Below are positions 5,394 to 62,106 of a stretch of 64,000 nt of DNA, piece by piece. The position numbers were made by a program, and so were the translations under genes. Within the stretch, counting starts at the first letter, position 1, and each line of letters opens with the position of its first letter. Origin of the DNA: an uncultured virus (IMG/VR IMGVR_UViG_3300042564_002756) (lineage: Duplodnaviria > Heunggongvirae > Uroviricota > Caudoviricetes). Where the stretch lies: IMG/VR virus record IMGVR_UViG_3300042564_002756, positions 62,001 to 126,000 of that record. One strand, given 5' to 3'. A model generated the notes under the pieces. That model was not told where the DNA came from and ran no database searches. It saw only the letters and a list, made by a program, of their open reading frames with translations.

Positions 5394-6521
5394 TTAAACC
5401 TCCATCCAGTTCATCATTGCTTCGTACTTCGGACCGTTACCAACAGAGTCACGTATCTTCTTGATTACAAGGGCCCGAAGTTCCTTTCCGTCAAGAGCAG
5501 AGAAGATGAAAGCAGCATCTTCTTTGTTAAGGAGGTTCGGAACAAAGTTGATAGCAACTTCCTTCTTTACTCCACCATGCAGGACACGAGCAAGAGTGAC
5601 AAGACCTTCGAGTCGACCAAGAACGTTTTCAATAGCAGCATCGAGTCGAAGTTCATATGCGCGAACAACAGCAAGATCAGTTGCATCCAACAAAGGCAGG
5701 ACGTCATCGAGTTGTTCATTCACGATGATATCAGCAATGTTCCGATCAGAACGGATCAGGTCCTTGGTCTTGTGGATACGGACATACCAATCATTCTTGA
5801 TTTTCAGCATGTGGCCCGTGGTAAAACGGATGATGTCACCCTCACGTCCCTGTTGTTGGCGGGCACGTACGATGTAGTCTGACAGCCCACCGTCTACAGA
5901 CCCATACTGCGGAACAACCTCGAAAGGAGCACCGAAATGCAAGTTGCTGATATACTCACCAGTAACAGTGTTACGAATGGCGGTCAGGATCAACTTCGGC
6001 TCAGAGTAGTCAATAACGATCTTGTTGGTCGGTGCAATGTATTCAAAGATCGGAGTTAAGCCATCGTCCATCATATATTCAAGCCAATCATACTGATTAG
6101 CATCAAGCAACTTTTCAGACTCGACAGCGATATCAGTCACACCCATCTTGGTGGCAAGACGAATCATTCCGTTCATGCGGAGCGGACGAATCATCGAGCC
6201 GTCCATCTTTTCCATGATAACATGAGGTTGAGTCATGTCAATCATATAAATCTGAGTCTCTTCACGCTCGTTCACGTTGAAGAACTTGTGATAGGGCCGC
6301 GACATGATGTTGCCTTCAGTATCGAAGATGATACCGCGGCACTCACGACGAATAGCAGCGCCAAGATCATCAGGACCAGCCATGTTGAAAGTATCCGCCA
6401 TGGCCACAACATAGTTAATTACCGTGCCAAACTCGCGCTCAGCAACAATAAATTCGGAACGGCCTTCGATGTAAGGAAGGACATCAGTGATGGTACGAAT
6501 TTCAGGAAACACATAGTTCAT
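5394..6521 (-). CDS. rnlA: T4 Rnl1-like RNA ligase
   Basis: RRECRGIIFD, SRPYHKFFNVNE, motif I EKMDGSMI, FEY, REGDII, KIKNDWY. Confidence 0.92.
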   Translation of the reverse strand: MNYVFPEIRTITDVLPYIEGRSEFIVAEREFGTVINYVVAMADTFNMAGPDDLGAAIRRECRGIIFDTEGNIMSRPYHKFFNVNEREETQIYMIDMTQPHVIMEKMDGSMIRPLRMNGMIRLATKMGVTDIAVESEKLLDANQYDWLEYMMDDGLTPIFEYIAPTNKIVIDYSEPKLILTAIRNTVTGEYISNLHFGAPFEVVPQYGSVDGGLSDYIVRARQQQGREGDIIRFTTGHMLKIKNDWYVRIHKTKDLIRSDRNIADIIVNEQLDDVLPLLDATDLAVVRAYELRLDAAIENVLGRLEGLVTLARVLHGGVKKEVAINFVPNLLNKEDAAFIFSALDGKELRALVIKKIRDSVGNGPKYEAMMNWMEV

Positions 6522-16785: not shown

Positions 16786-17895
16786 TTAGTTCCTCACCAA
16801 TTTAATTTTTTCACTTGCTCTTGTTACCGCAGTATAAAGCCACTTCCACCTATCATCACGGAAACACCACGACTCGTCTTGGATCAAAACATACGGCCAT
16901 TGAGAACCTTGTGCTTTGTGAGTTGTAATTGCATATGCATAATCAAATTGTTGTGAACCCTTTAGGAGTTTCCAATCTGGTTTTGCAACATCATCCATGA
17001 ATAAACTTTTGTGAACCTTTGCCATAATCGGTGGCCGTTCTTCATCTTGTGACTCAAGTCTCATGTGCATAAAACTTGTTTTATATTTAGAAGTAAGAAT
17101 TTGTTGAATGTCAAAAATCCCGCCATTGAAGATACCAAGGTCTTTATCATTCTGTAAACAAATAATCTTGTCTCCGACCACTGGTGTATCTGGATCAAGT
17201 TTCTTCAATTTACGAATTTTTCTATTCATTTCAAAACGAGTAATATTTCTTCCAACCAATAATTGATCTGCTTCTAGAACATCTTTAGAACTTATCTTTT
17301 CAACCACACTACTTTGCTCATAGTCACCATAATCTGGCATGATACCTTGCCGAACTTGAGTTGCTAGATAGATAATTGGATTGTCTTTTGCCTGGCGATG
17401 AATTTCAGTCAACATGAAGTCCGGTGTTCCGGCAGTAAAATATCCAGTGCCTGAAATAGGTGGCAACTGACCTGGATCACCTAGAACAAGAATTGGTTTT
17501 TTAAACCACAAAAGATCCTTGGCAAGATCTTCATCAACCATGGAACATTCGTCAATAATAATCAGTTTTGCACTATTAATGAACGAACCTTTATTTAAGT
17601 GAAAAGTCACTTCCCCTGTATTCTTATCTTGTTCTGCAAGGTAGATCATGCTGTGGATTGTTCGAGCTTCCTCACACCCATTTTTGCGCATGACCAGTGA
17701 TGCTTTACCTGTAAATGCCCCGAAAAATACGTCACCATCAATACCTTCCGCAAAATGTTTGGCCAGAGTAGTCTTACCTACACCAGCAAACCCGCCAAGA
17801 TAAAAGAATGGTTTGTCGGGTCTTCTGCTAGTGTAATACTCTTGCACCCATTTATCTACGGCCTTTAAAGCCTCATTTTGTTGTGATGTCCACAT
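16786..17895 (-). CDS. dda: SF1B Dda/RecD-like DNA helicase; start revised to MWTSQQ
   Basis: Walker A GFAGVGKT; IIDECSM, GDPGQLPP, LTEIHRQ, YAITTHKAQGS, LYTAVTRA. Confidence 0.85.
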   Translation of the reverse strand: MWTSQQNEALKAVDKWVQEYYTSRRPDKPFFYLGGFAGVGKTTLAKHFAEGIDGDVFFGAFTGKASLVMRKNGCEEARTIHSMIYLAEQDKNTGEVTFHLNKGSFINSAKLIIIDECSMVDEDLAKDLLWFKKPILVLGDPGQLPPISGTGYFTAGTPDFMLTEIHRQAKDNPIIYLATQVRQGIMPDYGDYEQSSVVEKISSKDVLEADQLLVGRNITRFEMNRKIRKLKKLDPDTPVVGDKIICLQNDKDLGIFNGGIFDIQQILTSKYKTSFMHMRLESQDEERPPIMAKVHKSLFMDDVAKPDWKLLKGSQQFDYAYAITTHKAQGSQWPYVLIQDESWCFRDDRWKWLYTAVTRASEKIKLVRN

Positions 17896-17953
17896 AAAAT
17901 ATCCTTTATAGTATAATGGTACCAATTTAACATATATATTTGATTAGTCAACT

Positions 17954-18235: not shown

Positions 18236-19735
18236 TTAATACCTATCTACAATAACGTCTTCGTACTCTGCTGGTTTGAGCTCAGACCGCTCACGAACTT
18301 GCTCGAACGTAGACTTGTTGAACAGCTCGCCGTTCAGGTATACCAGCTTCAAGAGGTTGTCTTCTGGTGTTACCATTTCCTCTGGTAGAGTTCTGTATCC
18401 GCAAGACCCCAAACCACATTGGCGTACCAGAGCAAGACGACCCTCTTTAGACTTTTTGCCGTGATCGCCAACTGGATCCTTGCTGAACCCAACCCAAGGA
18501 CCGTCAGCAATTCGAATTGCACTGGCCTTCATTGCATATTTCAGAGTATCACGATTCCATGCTTGCAACAGTCCGCCTCCCATACCAAATGCGATATTCT
18601 CTAGACTATAACCTGCCGCAATGATATTGTCAACAAGTACTTGCAGAGTATGTTCGTTCAAACCGTCACCTTGAATAACTTTGACAATAGGTGATCCGTC
18701 TGGACGTTTTGCAAGAACTTTGTAGCCCTTGCTATTGACAGTGTAGCCAAAGCATTCTGCGAGGATGTCCATGATTTCAATTGGAACGGTCATCGGATCG
18801 CCAGAGTCAGGGCGGACGACCAAAGTGCCACCACTGTCGATCACCAAGTCTTTGAGTTGATTACCCCAAAGTTCACGAACTGCTTCGTAGATGTTGTAAC
18901 TATCAGACACGCAGGCATAGATGCTTCCCGCAAAGCTGAACTGCGTAACCATATTGCGGTATGCTTCAACCTCGTTAGCACGACCCCAGCTGGTAACGGT
19001 GCTGTGCTCACTAGCAGGAATGGTCCGAGCAACAGGAGGTGCATCCAGACTAGTAATGTCAGCATCGTAGTATGCATATGCACCAAGAATACCTTCGACT
19101 GTATCCGACCCCCAGAAGTTAACCAAGTGACTCATACCACCAAGAACAGCACTTTCAGTTGAGCTTACACCGCGTCCACCAAAGTCGTGCAGAGCAAACT
19201 TGATCACCAAATTCATCAACACGTCAACGGGAATGTCAGAGGTTTTCACCAGAGCCTTTGCAATGATCTTCTTGAACTTACGGCTCTTGGTAGCAACAGT
19301 AGAAGGATACCAAACCCCACGCAACAGTGCCATTTCGATGTAGGAGGTCAGCCAGCCAAATCCACTCGTGGTATTTTTGACCTGCACTTGGACGTTATGA
19401 GTTTCCATAACGGTTCCCTCTGGAACGGCAGTGATTTCGAGTGGCAAAAATCCACCAAACTCGTTGAGCACACGTTCCCAACCTTCACGATTGAAGGGAG
19501 CGCCGTATACTTTGAAGATCAGCTCAGCAAAGTTGATGTCCGCCATAGTAATTGGTGTGGTCATGTAATCCATGATCCAAGCCTGTCCACCAAAGAAGGT
19601 ACTTTTGTCTTCCCCACCACGAGACTCAATATATGAGCTGATGTGAGTTGTGCCTGGCGGGTATTGTTTAAATTGGGATGGTTTGTAACCGTCAGTGCGC
19701 AGAATCGCAGTGAGTAGGTGTAGAATGTTTTTCAT
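18236..19735 (-). CDS. nadV: nicotinamide phosphoribosyltransferase (NAMPT/NadV)
   Basis: TDGYKPSQ, LHDFGGRG, GSDT, IPASEHS, CVSDSY, VRPDSGDP, IQGDG, FGMGGGLLQ, KKSKEGRL. Confidence 0.95.
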   Translation of the reverse strand: MKNILHLLTAILRTDGYKPSQFKQYPPGTTHISSYIESRGGEDKSTFFGGQAWIMDYMTTPITMADINFAELIFKVYGAPFNREGWERVLNEFGGFLPLEITAVPEGTVMETHNVQVQVKNTTSGFGWLTSYIEMALLRGVWYPSTVATKSRKFKKIIAKALVKTSDIPVDVLMNLVIKFALHDFGGRGVSSTESAVLGGMSHLVNFWGSDTVEGILGAYAYYDADITSLDAPPVARTIPASEHSTVTSWGRANEVEAYRNMVTQFSFAGSIYACVSDSYNIYEAVRELWGNQLKDLVIDSGGTLVVRPDSGDPMTVPIEIMDILAECFGYTVNSKGYKVLAKRPDGSPIVKVIQGDGLNEHTLQVLVDNIIAAGYSLENIAFGMGGGLLQAWNRDTLKYAMKASAIRIADGPWVGFSKDPVGDHGKKSKEGRLALVRQCGLGSCGYRTLPEEMVTPEDNLLKLVYLNGELFNKSTFEQVRERSELKPAEYEDVIVDRY

Positions 19736-19784
19736 AATAGAACTCCTCTATTGTTAGTGTTGTTACCAATTCTCTCTGAACTGG
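19736..19784 (-). promoter_or_regulatory. tandem-hairpin 5' leader, copy 1 (NAMPT)
   Basis: CCAGTTC-AGAGA-GAATTGG, 13 nt, AATAGA-GGAGT-TCTATT, then ATG. Confidence 0.75.
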
Positions 19785-19829
19785 ATTTAGTTTAAATATA
19801 TACTACTTTACTTGTTTGTCAACTGATTC

Positions 19830-20123
19830 TTATGCGGCTTGATCTTGGGCATCATGCCATTCTACAGTCCATTTTTGTAATTTTCTGTGGCCTTTTGGCC
19901 AATCATTCATGCCAAGGTATGTGACTTGATCACAGCATGGGCATTTAAAGCATACAGTTGGATTACAATCACATTTTTCATCAAAGTAACCTGGGCGATA
20001 GCGTAGATCATTCCAATCAATTTCAAGTAGTGCTTCGCAGCCTTCATTATCGCCACCCCAACCAGTGCAGCGATGTTGAATGGTCCATTGTTCTTTTGTT
20101 TTGCCTAGTTCAAGAATTTTCAT
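19830..20123 (-). CDS. Cys-rich hypothetical protein, 97 aa
   Basis: CxC/CPCC motifs; RBS present. Confidence 0.6.
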   Translation of the reverse strand: MKILELGKTKEQWTIQHRCTGWGGDNEGCEALLEIDWNDLRYRPGYFDEKCDCNPTVCFKCPCCDQVTYLGMNDWPKGHRKLQKWTVEWHDAQDQAA

Positions 20124-20299
20124 AGCTTCTCCAATACTTCATCTAATTCTTTCAGGAAACTCCAGGCGGGATTATCGCCCGAAGTATGTTTTCATTATCA
20201 ATATATAATGAAACCAAATAACCTAATTCTTGAAGTTCTCGTTTATTGGCAGAGATATTCAAGACATAATCTGATGCTGTTAGTTGTACATCCATTTGT

Positions 20300-21364
20300 T
20301 TATCCAATGTTAATGAAGTTGTCGATGATATGAAAATGATCTTCGAAGAGCTTCTCTTGTTTGACTTGGTTGAATGGAACCCAGAACGCTTTTTCAGCAT
20401 CATCGGAACCTTTGACCTTTGGAAGTTCACCAACACCAAGGTCAATCAAGAATGCCTGTGTGATGGTACGACCACGAGATGAGCGGTTCGGAGCATCAAA
20501 AGTCTTGGACTCTTTGATAGAACCCTTGAGAACGGGAACAGGAACCTTGATTTTTGTTTCCTCTTTCAACTCACGGATAGCCCCATCAAGCATAGTTTCA
20601 TCTTGATTGAGGAACCCGCCAGGCAGCGCCCATAGTCCTTTTCCTGGCATGTCGCCACGTTTCACGAGAAGGATGTGACCTGACTGAATAACAACAGAGT
20701 CAACAGTCATGAAGGTTGGTGGGAACGGCGCAGATTTCCAAGCTTCCTTGTATTTCTTGACCATATCATATTCTTTAGAAAGAGTATCCCATGCACCGCC
20801 AATTTTGGCATTTTGCATGATAGTATTAGCCATCGCATCATATGAAGGTTTTGGCATTGCGGCAGCAATTTTACTTGGGGACCCATTTTCACCGAACAAC
20901 ATCTTCCGAATATCAGTAGCATTGATACCGTTAACATCACCAACTTCGACATGGTCCTTCCAACGAGGAAAGATGTTCAAGTAGTAACTAGTACTGTCCT
21001 TCGAATGACCGATAAGACCAACATCTTTTGCATCAGGGACGGTTTCATCAACAATCTTCTGGATCGCGTTGACCCACTTGTTGTCGTCATATGGAAAGTC
21101 AGAGACTGGAACCACTTTGATGCGAGGTGTCTTGTTTCGACCCTGTGCACCGTCATAAGTGAAGTGCTTTGGTTCATTGAAGCAAGCTTCAATCATAGTC
21201 TTGCGTTCTTGGAATGTAAAGGGATTTCGGATATTTCGTGCGGCAAAAGAGGAACCGACTACGATTACTACTTCTTTTGCTTGTTCTAATGCAGCATCAA
21301 TAACTGCTTTGTGTCCATTGTGAAACGGTTGGAATCTTCCGATAAAAACTAGTGCATCGCGCAT
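20300..21364 (-). CDS. nadM: bifunctional NMN adenylyltransferase / ADP-ribose pyrophosphatase (NadM-Nudix); start revised to MRDALV
   Basis: GRFQPFHNGH, RNPFTFQER, INATDIR; Nudix box GGFLNQDETMLDGAIRELKEET; GSDDAEKAFW. Confidence 0.95.
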   Translation of the reverse strand: MRDALVFIGRFQPFHNGHKAVIDAALEQAKEVVIVVGSSFAARNIRNPFTFQERKTMIEACFNEPKHFTYDGAQGRNKTPRIKVVPVSDFPYDDNKWVNAIQKIVDETVPDAKDVGLIGHSKDSTSYYLNIFPRWKDHVEVGDVNGINATDIRKMLFGENGSPSKIAAAMPKPSYDAMANTIMQNAKIGGAWDTLSKEYDMVKKYKEAWKSAPFPPTFMTVDSVVIQSGHILLVKRGDMPGKGLWALPGGFLNQDETMLDGAIRELKEETKIKVPVPVLKGSIKESKTFDAPNRSSRGRTITQAFLIDLGVGELPKVKGSDDAEKAFWVPFNQVKQEKLFEDHFHIIDNFINIG

Positions 21365-21366
21365 TT

Positions 21367-21410
21367 GCAAAAACTCCTTTTGCTATATTGAGTGATCCTC
21401 TCTGGATCAC
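21367..21410 (-). promoter_or_regulatory. tandem-hairpin 5' leader, copy 2 (NadM-Nudix)
   Basis: GTGATCC-AGAGA-GGATCAC, 8 nt, GCAAAA-GGAGT-TTTTGC, AA, ATG. Confidence 0.8.
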
Positions 21411-21415
21411 ATGTT

Positions 21416-21446
21416 TATTTATAATCTATAGTTGGTATTTTGTCAA
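21416..21446 (-). promoter_or_regulatory. composite promoter: TTGACA-17-TATAAA overlapping a T4-type late promoter TATAAATA
   Basis: TATAAATA at 21423-21416; TTGACA at 21446-21441. Confidence 0.65.
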
Positions 21447-21449
21447 CAA

Positions 21450-22091
21450 TTATTTACGACCAGTTGGGCAATTTCGTTCGGCACCACGTTTCTGGTATGT
21501 TTCAGCAATCGCCAATTCATGATTAATTGAGTTACCTTTCAGTGCATACACATCTTTTGAAACACTGATTTTAACAAATGTACGAATACCAGGTTGAATG
21601 TTTGTATCAACTTTATGCAAGACTCGTTGATCAAGTTTCATGAGGTTCTTATTTGCATAACGGAATTGTTTTGACGGATCAGGTTCACATAATTGGTTCA
21701 TTTCATCTAGTGAATGAACATGATCAGCAGAAAAACTGTGAAGTGAATTGTCACAGAAAAACACTGTGGGATTTTTGTCAGACCAAATGTAGTTTAGATC
21801 ACCCGTCATAAAACCATCGCTGTGCCAACCAGGGCGATTGCCAGGTGTTTCGGGTTTGACATAAAGTGTTTTTGCAGTAATGTAAACATAATCATTGTCC
21901 CATTCATCGGCACGATCAAGTTTTACTTTTTCAACTAATGGCAAGAATTGCATTAGATTTGCGGGGATTACGGTATCAGACATGCCAGGAGTTTTAATTG
22001 GACAATACATCCAAAACATCATTTCAGTAGGATCAAGTTCTACCGGACCTAAATTTTCAGGTTGGGTTCCATAAATCTTATCAGTCGTCAT
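21450..22091 (-). CDS. uncharacterised protein, probable Fe(II)/2-oxoglutarate oxygenase-like double-stranded beta-helix fold
   Basis: RPGWHSDG (HxD), distal VLHKV and RTFVKIS match the HxD...H...R arrangement. Confidence 0.55.
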   Translation of the reverse strand: MTTDKIYGTQPENLGPVELDPTEMMFWMYCPIKTPGMSDTVIPANLMQFLPLVEKVKLDRADEWDNDYVYITAKTLYVKPETPGNRPGWHSDGFMTGDLNYIWSDKNPTVFFCDNSLHSFSADHVHSLDEMNQLCEPDPSKQFRYANKNLMKLDQRVLHKVDTNIQPGIRTFVKISVSKDVYALKGNSINHELAIAETYQKRGAERNCPTGRK

Positions 22092-22094
22092 GAT

Positions 22095-22136
22095 GCAAAA
22101 ACTCCTTTTGCGGTATCAATGATCCTCTCTGGATCA
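22095..22136 (-). promoter_or_regulatory. tandem-hairpin 5' leader, copy 3 (oxygenase-like gene)
   Basis: TGATCC-AGAGA-GGATCA, 8 nt, GCAAAA-GGAGT-TTTTGC, ATC, ATG. Confidence 0.8.
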
Positions 22137-22284
22137 GATGCTTATTTATTAATTTGCTTTACAGATGCGAACCATCCAACGGTAAAAACCGAATTTTCGG
22201 CTTTGACTGACTTTAGCACCTTGAGAAAGAATAAAGTCACGGTCGATATTCATCTTACGTAGAGGCATGTGTTGTTCCTTTTCA

Positions 22285-22325
22285 CCTTATAGAATCAGTA
22301 TAAACTATTCAGGTGGTACTGTCAA
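22285..22325 (-). promoter_or_regulatory. phage early promoter cassette, class 1
   Basis: TTGACA-17-TATACTGATTCTATAAGG. Confidence 0.85.
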
Positions 22326-22630
22326 CCCTTCTTTTCACAATCGGGATAAGTACAATGCAAATTATGTAAAGGGCAGTTACCGTTTTCATCTTTGTTTGGA
22401 CATATTGACTCTGTTTCTTCTAATAGACTAATGAGTCGTTCAGCACCTGCTTTTGCATCAGCTGCCATTACATCAGGTGAATATCCAAGCAGATATGCAG
22501 CAACCATGGCACCATAAAGGGAAGCAAGAAGATCATCAGCATCTTTACTATCTTCAAGTTGTTGCAGCCATTCCTGTAGGTGAATGGCTGCATTATTATT
22601 GATTTTCTTTACTCGTTCATCTTCACTCAT
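22322..22630 (-). CDS. hypothetical protein with a C-terminal Cys/His cluster
   Basis: ATGA overlap with thg1; CPxxxxxxxCPLHNLHCxxPxC. Confidence 0.6.
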   Translation of the reverse strand: MSEDERVKKINNNAAIHLQEWLQQLEDSKDADDLLASLYGAMVAAYLLGYSPDVMAADAKAGAERLISLLEETESICPNKDENGNCPLHNLHCTYPDCEKKG

Positions 22631-23406
22631 TTCACATATCCTACTCTCTGGTCAAGTGTATAGTCACCAAAGAACACAAGATCAAGTTCTTGAATTTTAG
22701 TTCGTTTAACAAGAACATCAGCATCTGGACGTTTATGTTCTGGTATCTTCATAAGTTCTGCTTGAGTCAAATATGACTCAACAGTAACTGGCTTTGCATA
22801 AGTGCCATACTTATATTTGTTTGGAAGCTCGGCCCAATCAGTAAAATAGTCAGACTTAAGAAGTGCTTTCATTTCTTCACCTGATAGACCGTGCATCTTC
22901 GAATGACCCACAGTCCAACGAAATAGTGATGAAATACTGTTCTTTCGAGCATCTTGAACACGCCACAAAAGTACGTTTGATGCTTCGGCAAGGTCAGGAA
23001 CAGCCCATGCACGGCAGTCAAAGAAAGCAGGTTTATCCATCTTTACACACTCAGAAAGAGTGGCATTAAAATGGAATGTTGCCATAGATGCAAGGATCGA
23101 GTTGATCTTTGATACTTTACCACCGAACATATATTCAGATGACTTCTCACCTGGTGTGTAGATCAATGTGATTTCGTCCGATTGTGTATACCCAATACTT
23201 GCATGAGTGTACTTGACAAGGTTCATCATAGTGTTGACCATGACACCACCAAGGATATCATCGAATGGCTTCTTGAAACCTTTTGTGAATTTACTGAAAC
23301 CTTTGCCGTCGATCCGAACACAAAGGATCTTATCAATTGGTACATAAGCTTCTGTATATTCGTGTTCGTGTGCTTTCATCCTGTCGCCAAATTCATCGTT
23401 TTTCAT
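22627..23406 (-). CDS. thg1: tRNA(His) guanylyltransferase Thg1-like protein (3'-5' polymerase)
   Basis: DRMKAHE, VRIDGKGFSKFT, KPFD, YTQSDEI, FGGKVSK, FDCR, WRVQDARKNS. Confidence 0.92.
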   Translation of the reverse strand: MKNDEFGDRMKAHEHEYTEAYVPIDKILCVRIDGKGFSKFTKGFKKPFDDILGGVMVNTMMNLVKYTHASIGYTQSDEITLIYTPGEKSSEYMFGGKVSKINSILASMATFHFNATLSECVKMDKPAFFDCRAWAVPDLAEASNVLLWRVQDARKNSISSLFRWTVGHSKMHGLSGEEMKALLKSDYFTDWAELPNKYKYGTYAKPVTVESYLTQAELMKIPEHKRPDADVLVKRTKIQELDLVFFGDYTLDQRVGYVK

Positions 23407-61064: not shown

Positions 61065-62106
61065 CTATGGTTTCCTTAATTATTTCAATAACTGTATTTA
61101 CATCAAGATTTGGATATATCGGAAGACTAAGTTGTTTCTTTGCGAGTTTATTTGTGTTTTCTAAGCCGCTTGTATTAAATATGTAAGGACTTTGTGAACT
61201 TACGGGAATATCATAATATACTCTAGTCTGTAATTTACTACTAATTTTACTTATAACATCTTCTCTATTATTTACTAAAATAGTATAAATGTTATAAGAA
61301 TGATTTACGCCAGGTTTAGTTTTTATATTACTAAAATATTTGCTATATTCTCCTGCAATATCTTTCTTTGCAGACATGACGCGACTATAATGTTTAAGTT
61401 TTACGGATAGAAATTCTGCTTGAATATTATCCATTCTATAGTTATAACCAATATCTCCAACTTCCCAATTCCGTAATCGTTTGACTTTATCATAATGTTT
61501 TTCATTATTTGTGATTATGCATCCTGCATCTCCAAGTGCACCTATATTTTTACTTGGATAAAAACTAAAAGTACCTATATCACCGAATGTTCCAACGTGT
61601 TTATCATTTATAGTAGTACCATGTGCCTGACTGCAATCTTCTATTACAGGTATACCATACTTATCTGCTATTTTCATAAGTTCTGGCATATCTACCGCAT
61701 TACCAAATAAATGCACTGGTATGATACACTTGGTCTTCTCTGTGATTTTTTCTTCAACCTTTGAAACATCCATGCAAAATGTTTCTGGATCTATATCTAC
61801 ATATACTGGTATTGCACCTTCATACATTATTGCAGAAACAGTTGCTCTGAATGTATATCCAACTGTAATTATTTCATCACCTGGTTTTATGTTTAATGCT
61901 TTGATTGCAAGATGAAGTGCTGCAGTACCACTAGCAACACATGCAGAATATGATGAACCTACAAAATTTGCAAATTCTTCTTCAAACTTTGATGTACCTA
62001 AAATGTAGTTACCACTTTGTATTATTGTTTCTGCACTAGCATTTAATTCATTAATACAATCTTTATGTATTGCTTGTAGATTAAAGAATGGTATTATTCC
62101 AGCCAT
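61039..62106 (-). CDS. DegT/DnrJ/EryC1/StrS sugar aminotransferase
   Basis: SGTAALHL, IIPVHLFG, IEDCSQAHG, FSFYPSKNIGALGDAG, GYNYRMD, LSLPIYP. Confidence 0.95.
   Translation of the reverse strand: MAGIIPFFNLQAIHKDCINELNASAETIIQSGNYILGTSKFEEEFANFVGSSYSACVASGTAALHLAIKALNIKPGDEIITVGYTFRATVSAIMYEGAIPVYVDIDPETFCMDVSKVEEKITEKTKCIIPVHLFGNAVDMPELMKIADKYGIPVIEDCSQAHGTTINDKHVGTFGDIGTFSFYPSKNIGALGDAGCIITNNEKHYDKVKRLRNWEVGDIGYNYRMDNIQAEFLSVKLKHYSRVMSAKKDIAGEYSKYFSNIKTKPGVNHSYNIYTILVNNREDVISKISSKLQTRVYYDIPVSSQSPYIFNTSGLENTNKLAKKQLSLPIYPNLDVNTVIEIIKETIDDNLCTVL

Follow-up and report, generated by a model that had tools for sequence, protein, structure and literature searches.

Leaders of two consecutive RNA hairpins with covarying stems precede the genes of nicotinamide adenine dinucleotide (NAD) salvage in a phage of lake water, in numerous unrelated phages, and in some bacteria. 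The best explanation of the compared sequences is a cis-acting RNA that would control a small NAD-salvage regulon at the initiation of translation. The phage is represented by IMG/VR record IMGVR_UViG_3300042564_002756 (137,360 bp, 36.8% G+C, CheckV completeness estimate 68%), for which all 24 listed sequencing runs are DNA metagenomes of lake water, and the window analyzed here is the whole 64,000-nucleotide stretch from position 62,001 to 126,000 of this record. We put the probability that the element is a functional translational leader specific for NAD salvage at roughly 85%. Members of the regulon are NadM-Nudix—a nicotinamide mononucleotide (NMN) adenylyltransferase fused to a Nudix domain—and the nicotinamide phosphoribosyltransferase NAMPT, in relatives also the transporter PnuC, and the two uncharacterized families phrog_1843 and phrog_33851.

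Phage genes that rebuild NAD are a recently described counter-defense against the NAD-depleting immunity of bacteria, and nothing on their control is described in the papers searched. The leader is a compact and widely conserved candidate control element with 64 distinct canonical (ANNGA-loop) sequences, also in cultured phage–host pairs, and would be a new RNA family as a riboswitch and as a protein operator alike.

The leader in the window

All genes between 16.8 and 23.4 kb of the window lie on the minus strand, and three of them share one leader plan: hairpin 1 (HP1), a linker, hairpin 2 (HP2), and the ATG start codon. HP1 consists of 6–7 bp with a C-G pair closing an AGAGA loop, the linkers are G-poor and 8–13 nt long, and HP2 consists of 6 bp around a GGAGU loop, which carries the Shine-Dalgarno sequence (SD), with the end of the stem 0–3 nt from the ATG. 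The elements, their matches to the covariance model R2, the adjoining promoter-like sequences, and the genes served are as follows.

19784-19766, minus strand: HP1 of the NAMPT leader, ccaguucAGAGAgaauugg, CCAGUUC-AGAGA-GAAUUGG, 7 bp with one G-U pair
19753..19765, minus strand: linker of the NAMPT leader, UAACAACACUAAC, 13 nt with zero G
19752-19736, minus strand: HP2 of the NAMPT leader, aauagaGGAGUucuauu, AAUAGA-GGAGU-UCUAUU, SD in the loop, ATG at 19735 immediately after
19733-19784, minus strand: whole NAMPT leader as matched by R2, 49.2 bits
21410-21392, minus strand: HP1 of the NadM-Nudix leader, gugauccAGAGAggaucac, GUGAUCC-AGAGA-GGAUCAC, R2 56.1 bits
21383-21367, minus strand: HP2 of the NadM-Nudix leader, gcaaaaGGAGUuuuugc, GCAAAA-GGAGU-UUUUGC, after an 8-nt linker, 2 nt to the ATG at 21364
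22136-22120, minus strand: HP1 of the leader of a gene for a 213-aa protein, ugauccAGAGAggauca, UGAUCC-AGAGA-GGAUCA, 6 bp, R2 46.3 bits
22111-22095, minus strand: HP2 of the 213-aa gene leader, same sequence as HP2 of the NadM-Nudix leader, after an 8-nt linker, 3 nt to the ATG at 22091
19795..19822, minus strand: sigma-70-like promoter TTGACA-16-TATATT before the NAMPT leader, 11 of 12 consensus matches, a consensus match only
21418..21446, minus strand: promoter-like TTGACA-17-TATAAA before the NadM-Nudix leader, read by eye from the sequence
22297-22325, minus strand: near-perfect promoter TTGACA-17-TATACT ahead of a 38-aa open reading frame (ORF), from the sequence scan
18236-19735, minus strand: NAMPT, 499 aa, Pfam PF04095 (7e-47) and PF18127 (1e-17), phrog_448 (3e-142)
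20300-21364, minus strand: NadM-Nudix, 354 aa, Pfam PF01467 and PF00293, phrog_395 (3e-83)
21450-22091, minus strand: 213-aa protein, phrog_1843 (function unknown), predicted fold like that of 2-oxoglutarate (2OG)-Fe(II) oxygenases

A preliminary description of this stretch, made from its letters alone, had reported three leaders of one plan 0–3 nt before the ATG and no other copy by eye. Their coordinates and sequences are confirmed on the minus strand, and a hairpin scan and the R2 search of the whole record return these three leaders only (R2 E 1e-9 to 1.4e-7; next match E 2.75). The hairpin scan finds no further GGAGU-loop hairpin in the 137,360 bp, and one extra AGAGA hairpin that is unrelated and lacks an HP2 partner. 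A megablast search of the region against GenBank phages gives zero matches. The NAMPT and NadM-Nudix leaders have different stems and the same loops, while the 213-aa gene leader is a near-copy of the NadM-Nudix leader. Hence, all three reported copies are real, but the window contains two independent versions of the leader and not three.

The -10 box of the NAMPT promoter ends 10 nt ahead of HP1. That of the promoter at 21418..21446, which the promoter scan did not list because its last -10 base is A, ends 7 nt ahead of HP1 of the NadM-Nudix leader, so that this hairpin would begin at about +2 of the transcript. The 38-aa ORF lies directly upstream of the third leader, which therefore would be internal to the transcript from the promoter at 22297-22325. 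On the plus strand, two stretches (21392-21420 and 22120-22146), in which the reverse complement of HP1 is followed by T-rich DNA, scored as terminator-like; this probably is the AT-rich promoter viewed from the opposite strand.

Covariation and anatomy of the leader family

The comparison builds on 78 IMG/VR loci that were fetched via the NadM-Nudix protein and whose proteins are 34–100% identical to the query. In the 110 nt upstream of many of these NadM-Nudix genes, the same two-hairpin plan recurs with quite different stems. A first alignment of 35 distinct leaders, picked by a perfect-hairpin filter, yields a covariation score of 0.93 (0.23 for shuffled and at most 0.15 for slid partners), with 12 of 13 pairs varying on both sides. 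A second, model-guided alignment of 66 matches, 64 of them distinct, raises the score to 1.03 (0.21 shuffled, at most 0.11 slid), again with double changes in 12 of 13 pairs—which substantiates the compensatory change of the stems that had been proposed from the window copies. RNAalifold predicts the same two hairpins from this second alignment, whose paired columns include 27 G-U cells.

Loop 1 reads A-N-N-G-A, with the A, the G, and the final A each present in 65 of 65 rows, G or U at position 2, and mostly A at position 3. The closing pair follows position 2: C-G goes with G and G-C with U. The stem of HP1, which is stable with an average of -6.8 kcal/mol when trimmed to 7 bp, is free to vary; with this free stem and its fixed loop, HP1 resembles a recognition hairpin. 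The linker spans 6–14 nt and contains 18 G per 579 nt over the 64 leaders; its end reads W-W-A-A-Y family-wide. In several NAMPT leaders (e.g., L003:5259-5304), the end of the linker and the 5′ strand of HP2 together read UUAACUUUAGAGGAG, which resembles the "epsilon" enhancer of T7 gene 10 followed by the SD.

HP2 is formed by the spacer between SD and AUG, which pairs with an A-rich stretch immediately upstream of the SD and leaves the GGAG in the loop. Its three outer pairs vary freely, and the inner three are conserved (A-U, A-U or G-C, A-U) around GGAG(U/C). RNAalifold additionally pairs G1 of this loop with U5 or C5, which results in a GAG triloop. HP2 is weak (mean -2.8 ± 0.9 kcal/mol), and the start codon follows 0–3 nt past it in 64 of 64 leaders. 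A pseudoknot is absent, as nearby five-base complements of loop 1 amount to 5, 7, and 3 matches in the 64 leaders. A conserved anti-SD pairing from the 3′ strand of HP1 was dropped, since on reading it was seen in few leaders only.

A model-free structural scan, which asks for an ANNGA or GWWGUA loop in HP1, an SD-like loop in HP2, and a start codon thereafter, finds 78 copies on the gene strand of the 78 viral loci and 0 on the opposite strand, spread over 43 of the 78 loci. This asymmetry bears on the question of whether HP1 acts as DNA, that is, as a palindromic operator (e.g., of NrtR) or as an antisense terminator. HP1 adjoins promoters, its reverse complement with the T-rich DNA is terminator-like on the plus strand, and regulons of NrtR are reported to cover NAD-synthesis genes (PMC2330246). 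However, the stems are unconserved while an asymmetric center is conserved, G-U pairs are tolerated, intra-operon copies are remote from promoters, the T-run just reflects the AT-rich promoter on the opposite strand, and the 0 copies on the opposite strand stand against 78 plus 11 on the gene strand in the viral loci and in the bacterial loci described below. The G-U cells and the strand asymmetry thus argue for RNA rather than duplex DNA, and we consider a DNA-level element extremely improbable. Together with the position of the start codon and the intra-operon copies, they locate the function in the RNA and in the initiation of translation.

Restriction to NAD-salvage genes

Covariance model R1 was searched against the window and 64 loci (615 kb, both strands) and gave 66 matches at E<=1, 65 of these on the gene strand. 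When three L001 duplicates are omitted, the remaining 63 matches lie upstream of NadM-Nudix (26), NAMPT (30), PnuC (3), the 213-aa gene (1), phrog_33851 (1), or no gene (2, both weak); the three PnuC transporters belong to PF04973 with E 2e-37 to 4e-33. All 78 copies of the model-free scan precede NadM-Nudix (40), NAMPT (33), PnuC (3), or the 213-aa gene (2).

Longer sequences give the same picture. Five IMG/VR records (195–382 kb, 1.39 Mb in total) contain 11 strong matches, two to three each and all at NAD loci, with one further match at E 0.3 elsewhere. Five GenBank phages searched whole contain seven matches, all ending at an annotated NadM-type or NAMPT start: two each in Phaeobacter phage MD18, Rhodobacter phage RcXuper, and Synechococcus phage B23, and one (E 0.0096) in Ralstonia phage RsoM2USA. 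Over 16 whole phage records, strong matches are confined to the NAD-salvage gene set. The covariance-model search of phage genomes and the table of downstream genes, both suggested in the preliminary description, hence return homologous leaders that are linked to NAD genes. The proposed assignment of the leader to NAD-salvage genes holds for NAMPT, NadM-Nudix, and PnuC in relatives, but not for the third gene of the window, whose product is not a known salvage enzyme.

All IMG/VR contigs were scanned with two gene-blind IUPAC patterns that are restricted to loop 1 and the upper part of HP2. The GGATAGACC pattern gives 24 distinct matches, 19 of them before NadM-Nudix (9) or NAMPT (10), and the CAGAGAG pattern another 24, of which 10 precede NadM-Nudix (7), PnuC (2), or the 213-aa gene (1). 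Only one of the 19 remaining matches, in contig L168, is recognized by the model (E 1.2e-6), with an unclear start codon; the other 18 (E>=0.03, or none at E<=1) look like chance. On metagenome contigs, the GGATAGACC pattern occurs in at least 123 stretches, and among the matches listed, 21 of the 80 metagenome loci examined have a model match of E<0.01. These 21 lie before NadM-Nudix (6), NAMPT (10), phrog_33851 (1), and a fragment like the 213-aa protein (1), or on stretches that are too short or ORF-less (3). NadM-Nudix is present in five of five records found gene-blind.

The leader also marks two families outside the known enzymes. Proteins of phrog_33851 (~120 aa, family function unknown) stand under the leader in three contigs—L012:503-862, L063:3639-3989 (weak, E 0.064), and L282 (339-388, minus strand)—and share the conserved stretch W-R-x-x-G-E-D-x-N-C-D-x-G-G-x-H-Y. 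The family phrog_1843 is tied to NAD salvage three times: by the leader of the 213-aa gene in the window, by a relative directly after NAMPT in Ralstonia phage RsoM2USA (L223:3937-4740; profile E 2.5e-20), and by the match in L168, an unrelated contig, where a class-2 leader (L168:197-242, minus strand) precedes a fragment like the N-terminus of the family (profile E 7e-5). Because the leader precedes them, both families are candidates for functions linked to NAD salvage, and by this association they are likely new players in NAD metabolism.

Variants in jumbo phages and bacteria

Jumbo phages (355–378 kb) carry the same leader plan before NadM-Nudix and NAMPT, with covarying HP1 stems, a loop 1 of G-W-W-G-U-A, and CUAAG-GGAGU-CUUAG as HP2 (loci L027, L029, L035-L044, L051-L053, and L077; e.g., L027:3935-3982 and 5624-5670). 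A model of this variant finds nine matches at E<=1e-10 in five complete genomes (1.83 Mb), all of which are NadM or NAMPT leaders, while the rest have E>=0.04.

Bacteria bear the leader as well, at 11 of 80 nadM-nudix loci (Methylococcales, Oceanospirillales, Caulobacter, and Rhodospirillales). A looser structural scan of the 80 bacterial loci gives 11 matches in nine loci (L081-L084, L103, L116, L120, L125, and L130), on the gene strand only with 0 on the opposite strand, and two loci (L108 and L143) were added by eye. Five of the bacterial matches were checked and all precede NadM-Nudix or NAMPT; the others were placed by position. R1 on these loci matches one Rhodospirillales metagenome-assembled genome, and R2 on 127 genomes of that order finds this genome only. 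A near-absence of the motif from bacteria was dropped as a conclusion, as R1 (2 of 80 loci) and R2 (1 of 127 genomes) are too strict when compared with 11 of 80: both models miss HP2 variants with GGAUU or GAG loops. Hence, the idea of a phage regulon stands insofar as the leader precedes NAD genes in many phages, but the regulon is not restricted to phages.

In a complete Neptuniibacter chromosome, an ordinary chromosomal locus (L120:2124-5611) combines a divergent nrtR, nadM-nudix under the leader, and nadV downstream. The product of this nrtR has a Nudix domain and the NrtR winged helix, and the locus seems to combine transcriptional control with control through RNA. A palindrome, CAGCGGATCGCTGG, lies upstream of the leader in both L116 and L108 and may be a DNA operator.

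A quick tree of 152 NadM-Nudix proteins was midpoint-rooted, with SH-aLRT (Shimodaira–Hasegawa-like approximate likelihood ratio test) support only, several long branches, and leader labels from a regular expression that assigns "none" too often. In this tree, a betaproteobacterial clade of 50 is without the leader, and phage and bacterial sequences are mixed in the other half. The loop classes cluster by NadM clade, and bacterial carriers appear in at least three places.

Such clustering would be expected if a constitutive leader were inherited with its gene, that is, if a portable insulated ribosome-binding site (RBS) or an mRNA stabilizer traveled with the NAD cassette and sensed nothing. 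The SD displayed in a loop, the A/C/U-rich linker, and the weak HP2 fit this idea, as do the distance of ~7–10 nt between the -10 box and HP1 in NadM leaders, by which HP1 would be a 5′-terminal hairpin, and the 213-aa gene leader, which looks copied from the NadM-Nudix leader. On the contrary, a general enhancer should spread, and none was found outside the gene set in the 16 whole phage records. An insulator furthermore would need no invariant loop, such as the one whose A, G, and A are fixed in 65 of 65 rows. Unrelated genes within or beside the NAD cluster (PnuC, phrog_1843, and phrog_33851) have recruited the leader, which also occurs in intra-operon copies that lack a promoter, such as the 213-aa gene leader and the NAMPT leaders of L005. 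A purely constitutive role is therefore quite improbable.

Relation to known systems

Searches with Rfam 15—of the region, of each leader alone, and of four other motif-bearing loci—gave nothing but noise at permissive thresholds. The model of the NAD+-II riboswitch (pnuC motif) has no match at E<=10 in the window leaders nor at E<=1 in the four other loci, and that of the NAD+-I riboswitch (nadA motif) has no match on the leaders of the window and of these loci, whose hairpins are without conserved bulges; the architecture of NAD+-I consists of tandem bulged stem-loop domains. In the literature searched on NAD riboswitches and phage NAD genes (open-access papers and bioRxiv), no such leader is described. 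The preliminary description had held that the motif is undescribed and unlike the nadA and pnuC riboswitches. Both views agree with these searches, and we take the leader for an RNA family that is not yet described but belongs to a known general type.

NAD+-II is comparable insofar as it, too, is a short 5′ element before pnuC with the RBS inside a conserved structure; the pnuC motif comprises P1, P1a, and a pseudoknot, and the representative tested comes from Streptococcus (PMC7749635). The leader described here differs by its two plain, separate hairpins without a pseudoknot and by its occurrence mainly before nadM-nudix and nadV of phages and Proteobacteria.

The guanidine-II riboswitch (mini-ykkC) consists of two small hairpins with a variable linker beside the SD, whose ACGR loops pair with each other. 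The leader shares the two small hairpins with conserved loops and the variable linker next to the SD, and by this analogy it may work through docking of its loops. In contrast to guanidine-II, its loops—ANNGA in 65 of 65 rows and GGAG(U/C)—cannot pair, its gene context is another one, and it has no Rfam match.

In protein-bound operators such as those of E. coli ThrRS, the MS2 coat-protein hairpin, T4 RegA, and gp43, invariant loop bases are combined with a free stem near the SD or AUG, and in the case of ThrRS, a dimeric protein bridges two similar hairpins. The leader likewise bears invariant loop bases beside the SD and AUG. It differs from these operators in that it has no known cognate protein, is shared by multiple genes of one metabolic pathway, and is spread over many unrelated phages as well as bacteria. 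Cleavage of GGAG of the T4 RegB type, PeSL cassettes, and the put RNAs of HK022 were considered and set aside, as they leave the restriction to NAD genes and the wide spread unexplained.

NrtR is reported as a family of transcriptional regulators of NAD synthesis, and both nadV and pnuC occur in the paper concerned (PMC2330246). The likeness to the leader lies in a regulon of NAD-synthesis genes and, in Neptuniibacter, in direct adjacency. NrtR is a DNA-binding repressor with conserved operators, whereas the leader is a strand-specific RNA with unconserved stems, an asymmetric center, and 0 opposite-strand copies.

The genes under the leader correspond to the phage NAD+ reconstitution pathway 2 (NARP2), which is composed of Nampt and Nmnat (bioRxiv 10.1101/2024.02.11.579819)—the latter being present here as NadM-Nudix. 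The NARP2 pair, Nampt and Nmnat together in one phage, is found in the window by the Pfam and PHROG assignments, and a PRPS-like Adps gene does not adjoin NAMPT or NadM-Nudix within the region read. According to the same preprint, NARP2 is costly, consumes phosphoribosyl pyrophosphate (PRPP), and overproduces NAD+ even without defense, and the NARP2 operon of phage KVP40 is toxic in E. coli and could not be cloned there. In its main text, the counts of the words "riboswitch," "hairpin," "stem-loop," and "UTR" are all 0.

How the leader might act

We tentatively favor a protein-bound translational operator that would give feedback control, a proposal drawn from the sequence comparison. Hereby, HP1 would confer specificity by binding a trans-acting factor, for which a dimeric protein of the pathway (NadM-Nudix or NAMPT) is the likeliest candidate. 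This factor would also touch the similar GAG loop of HP2 and lock this weak hairpin, which would keep the 30S subunit off the mRNA. In this way, a costly pathway would be repressed by feedback until occupation of the protein or depletion of NAD lifts the block. An invariant loop on a varying stem is the pattern of operators of phage RNA-binding proteins, and the difference of loop types between lineages (ANNGA versus GWWGUA in jumbo phages) hints at a protein as well, as does their clustering by NadM clade. Further hints are the constant co-occurrence of the leader with NadM-Nudix and NAMPT, including NadM-Nudix in the five of five records found gene-blind, and the reported cost of NARP2 and toxicity of the KVP40 operon, for which control would pay. 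HP2 is conserved by covariation yet weak, and is thus expected to need locking or opening by something else; by its predicted stability it is too weak for repression alone, which we count toward a protein. The modeled GAG triloop of HP2 is compatible with the dimer proposed in the preliminary description, which would bind two GAG loops and is a reasonable hypothesis.

The main rival to a protein operator is a new class of riboswitch, in which the two loops would dock around a NAD-related ligand—NAD+, NMN, nicotinamide riboside, nicotinamide, ADP-ribose, or PRPP—and stabilize HP2 such that the RBS is masked, or the reverse. One covarying structure before unrelated genes of a single pathway, including a transporter, in distant lineages is the signature of a riboswitch. 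The hosts are far apart, with phages of Rhodobacterales, Ralstonia, and Synechococcus and chromosomes of Methylococcales, Oceanospirillales, Caulobacter, and Rhodospirillales, and no host-specific protein could serve hosts of such diversity. Also, the Neptuniibacter leader stands beside a gene of the NrtR family (PMC2330246), so that it would form a second, RNA-level layer of control. On the other side, the fixed nucleotides are few (A, G, and A of loop 1 and the SD), an argument against a riboswitch that falls short of excluding it. Conserved internal loops, junctions, and pseudoknots are missing from the phage forms, and their two loops cannot pair together. The variation of loop 1 by lineage would be odd for a ligand pocket, and in bacteria the leader is rare (11 of 80 nadM loci; R2 in 1 of 127 genomes of one order). 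We hence regard a riboswitch as rather unlikely. The more specific idea of a third class of NAD-pathway riboswitch—the first to be mainly phage-carried and structurally unrelated to the others, with loops that clamp a small substrate or product of the destruction or repair of NAD (nicotinamide, ADP-ribose, NMN, or NAD+)—is unlikely, too. If true, a phage would translate its NAD-rebuilding enzymes only once the host defense burns NAD, and the NAD counter-defense would include phrog_1843 and phrog_33851 as members not yet recognized.

Several points weigh against an NAD-salvage-specific translational leader or against its control by a protein. It is a guess whether the control represses or activates. 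We know of no RNA binding by NadM-Nudix or NAMPT, for which no search was made, and the Pfam assignment gives neither of them an extra domain. Alignments A1 and A3 were picked by structure-aware filters, which makes the percentage of paired cells circular, and the co-occurrence with NadM-Nudix partly reflects the collection of the loci through this protein. Single-sequence folding reproduces both hairpins in each window leader, with modest z-scores of -0.86, -2.25, and -0.82; as these are ordinary, the case rests on comparison and not on stability. Vibrio phage KVP40, the phage of the NARP2 operon named in the preprint, has zero leader matches genome-wide despite its NadM-Nudix gene, and Mesorhizobium phage Cp1R7A-A1 and Acidovorax phage ACP17 carry the enzymes without the leader (R1, NAMPT loci only). 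Furthermore, bacterial NadM-Nudix proteins of equal similarity (35–49%) are mostly without a leader (69 of 80 loci); as a family, these proteins can do without the RNA.

Neighboring genes of the cluster

The predicted structure of the 213-aa protein (34 homologues; pLDDT 92.3, pTM 0.89) has a weak likeness to 2OG-Fe(II) oxygenases (Foldseek E 2e-4, TM 0.3–0.4), whereas Pfam and sequence searches of PDB and NCBIfam give no match. H90, D92, H159, and R170 (H-x-D...H...R) are invariant in the 34 homologues, and on the basis of this model the protein is predicted to be 2OG-oxygenase-like rather than a known salvage enzyme. Two further small genes lie in this region.

19830..20123, minus strand: 97-aa Cys-rich protein (CxxW...C...CDC...CFKCPCC) between NadM-Nudix and the NAMPT leader, without a leader of its own
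22152..22268, minus strand: 38-aa very basic ORF, ending 15 nt ahead of HP1 of the 213-aa gene leader

The 97-aa protein, which has no family match, is encoded at the same position in nine distinct but related IMG/VR loci (L008-L013, L016, L017, and L019) as well as in L001 and L002, which are near-identical; the other motif-bearing loci lack it. As it occurs in close relatives only, it was ruled out as a universal trans-acting factor. The same holds for the 38-aa basic peptide, whose homologues are found in near-identical contigs only.

The NAD cluster adjoins, on its upstream side, a gene for a Thg1-like tRNA-His guanylyltransferase (22627-23406, minus strand; PF04446 1.6e-28; phrog_4717), and a RecD- or Pif1-like helicase is encoded at 16786-17925.

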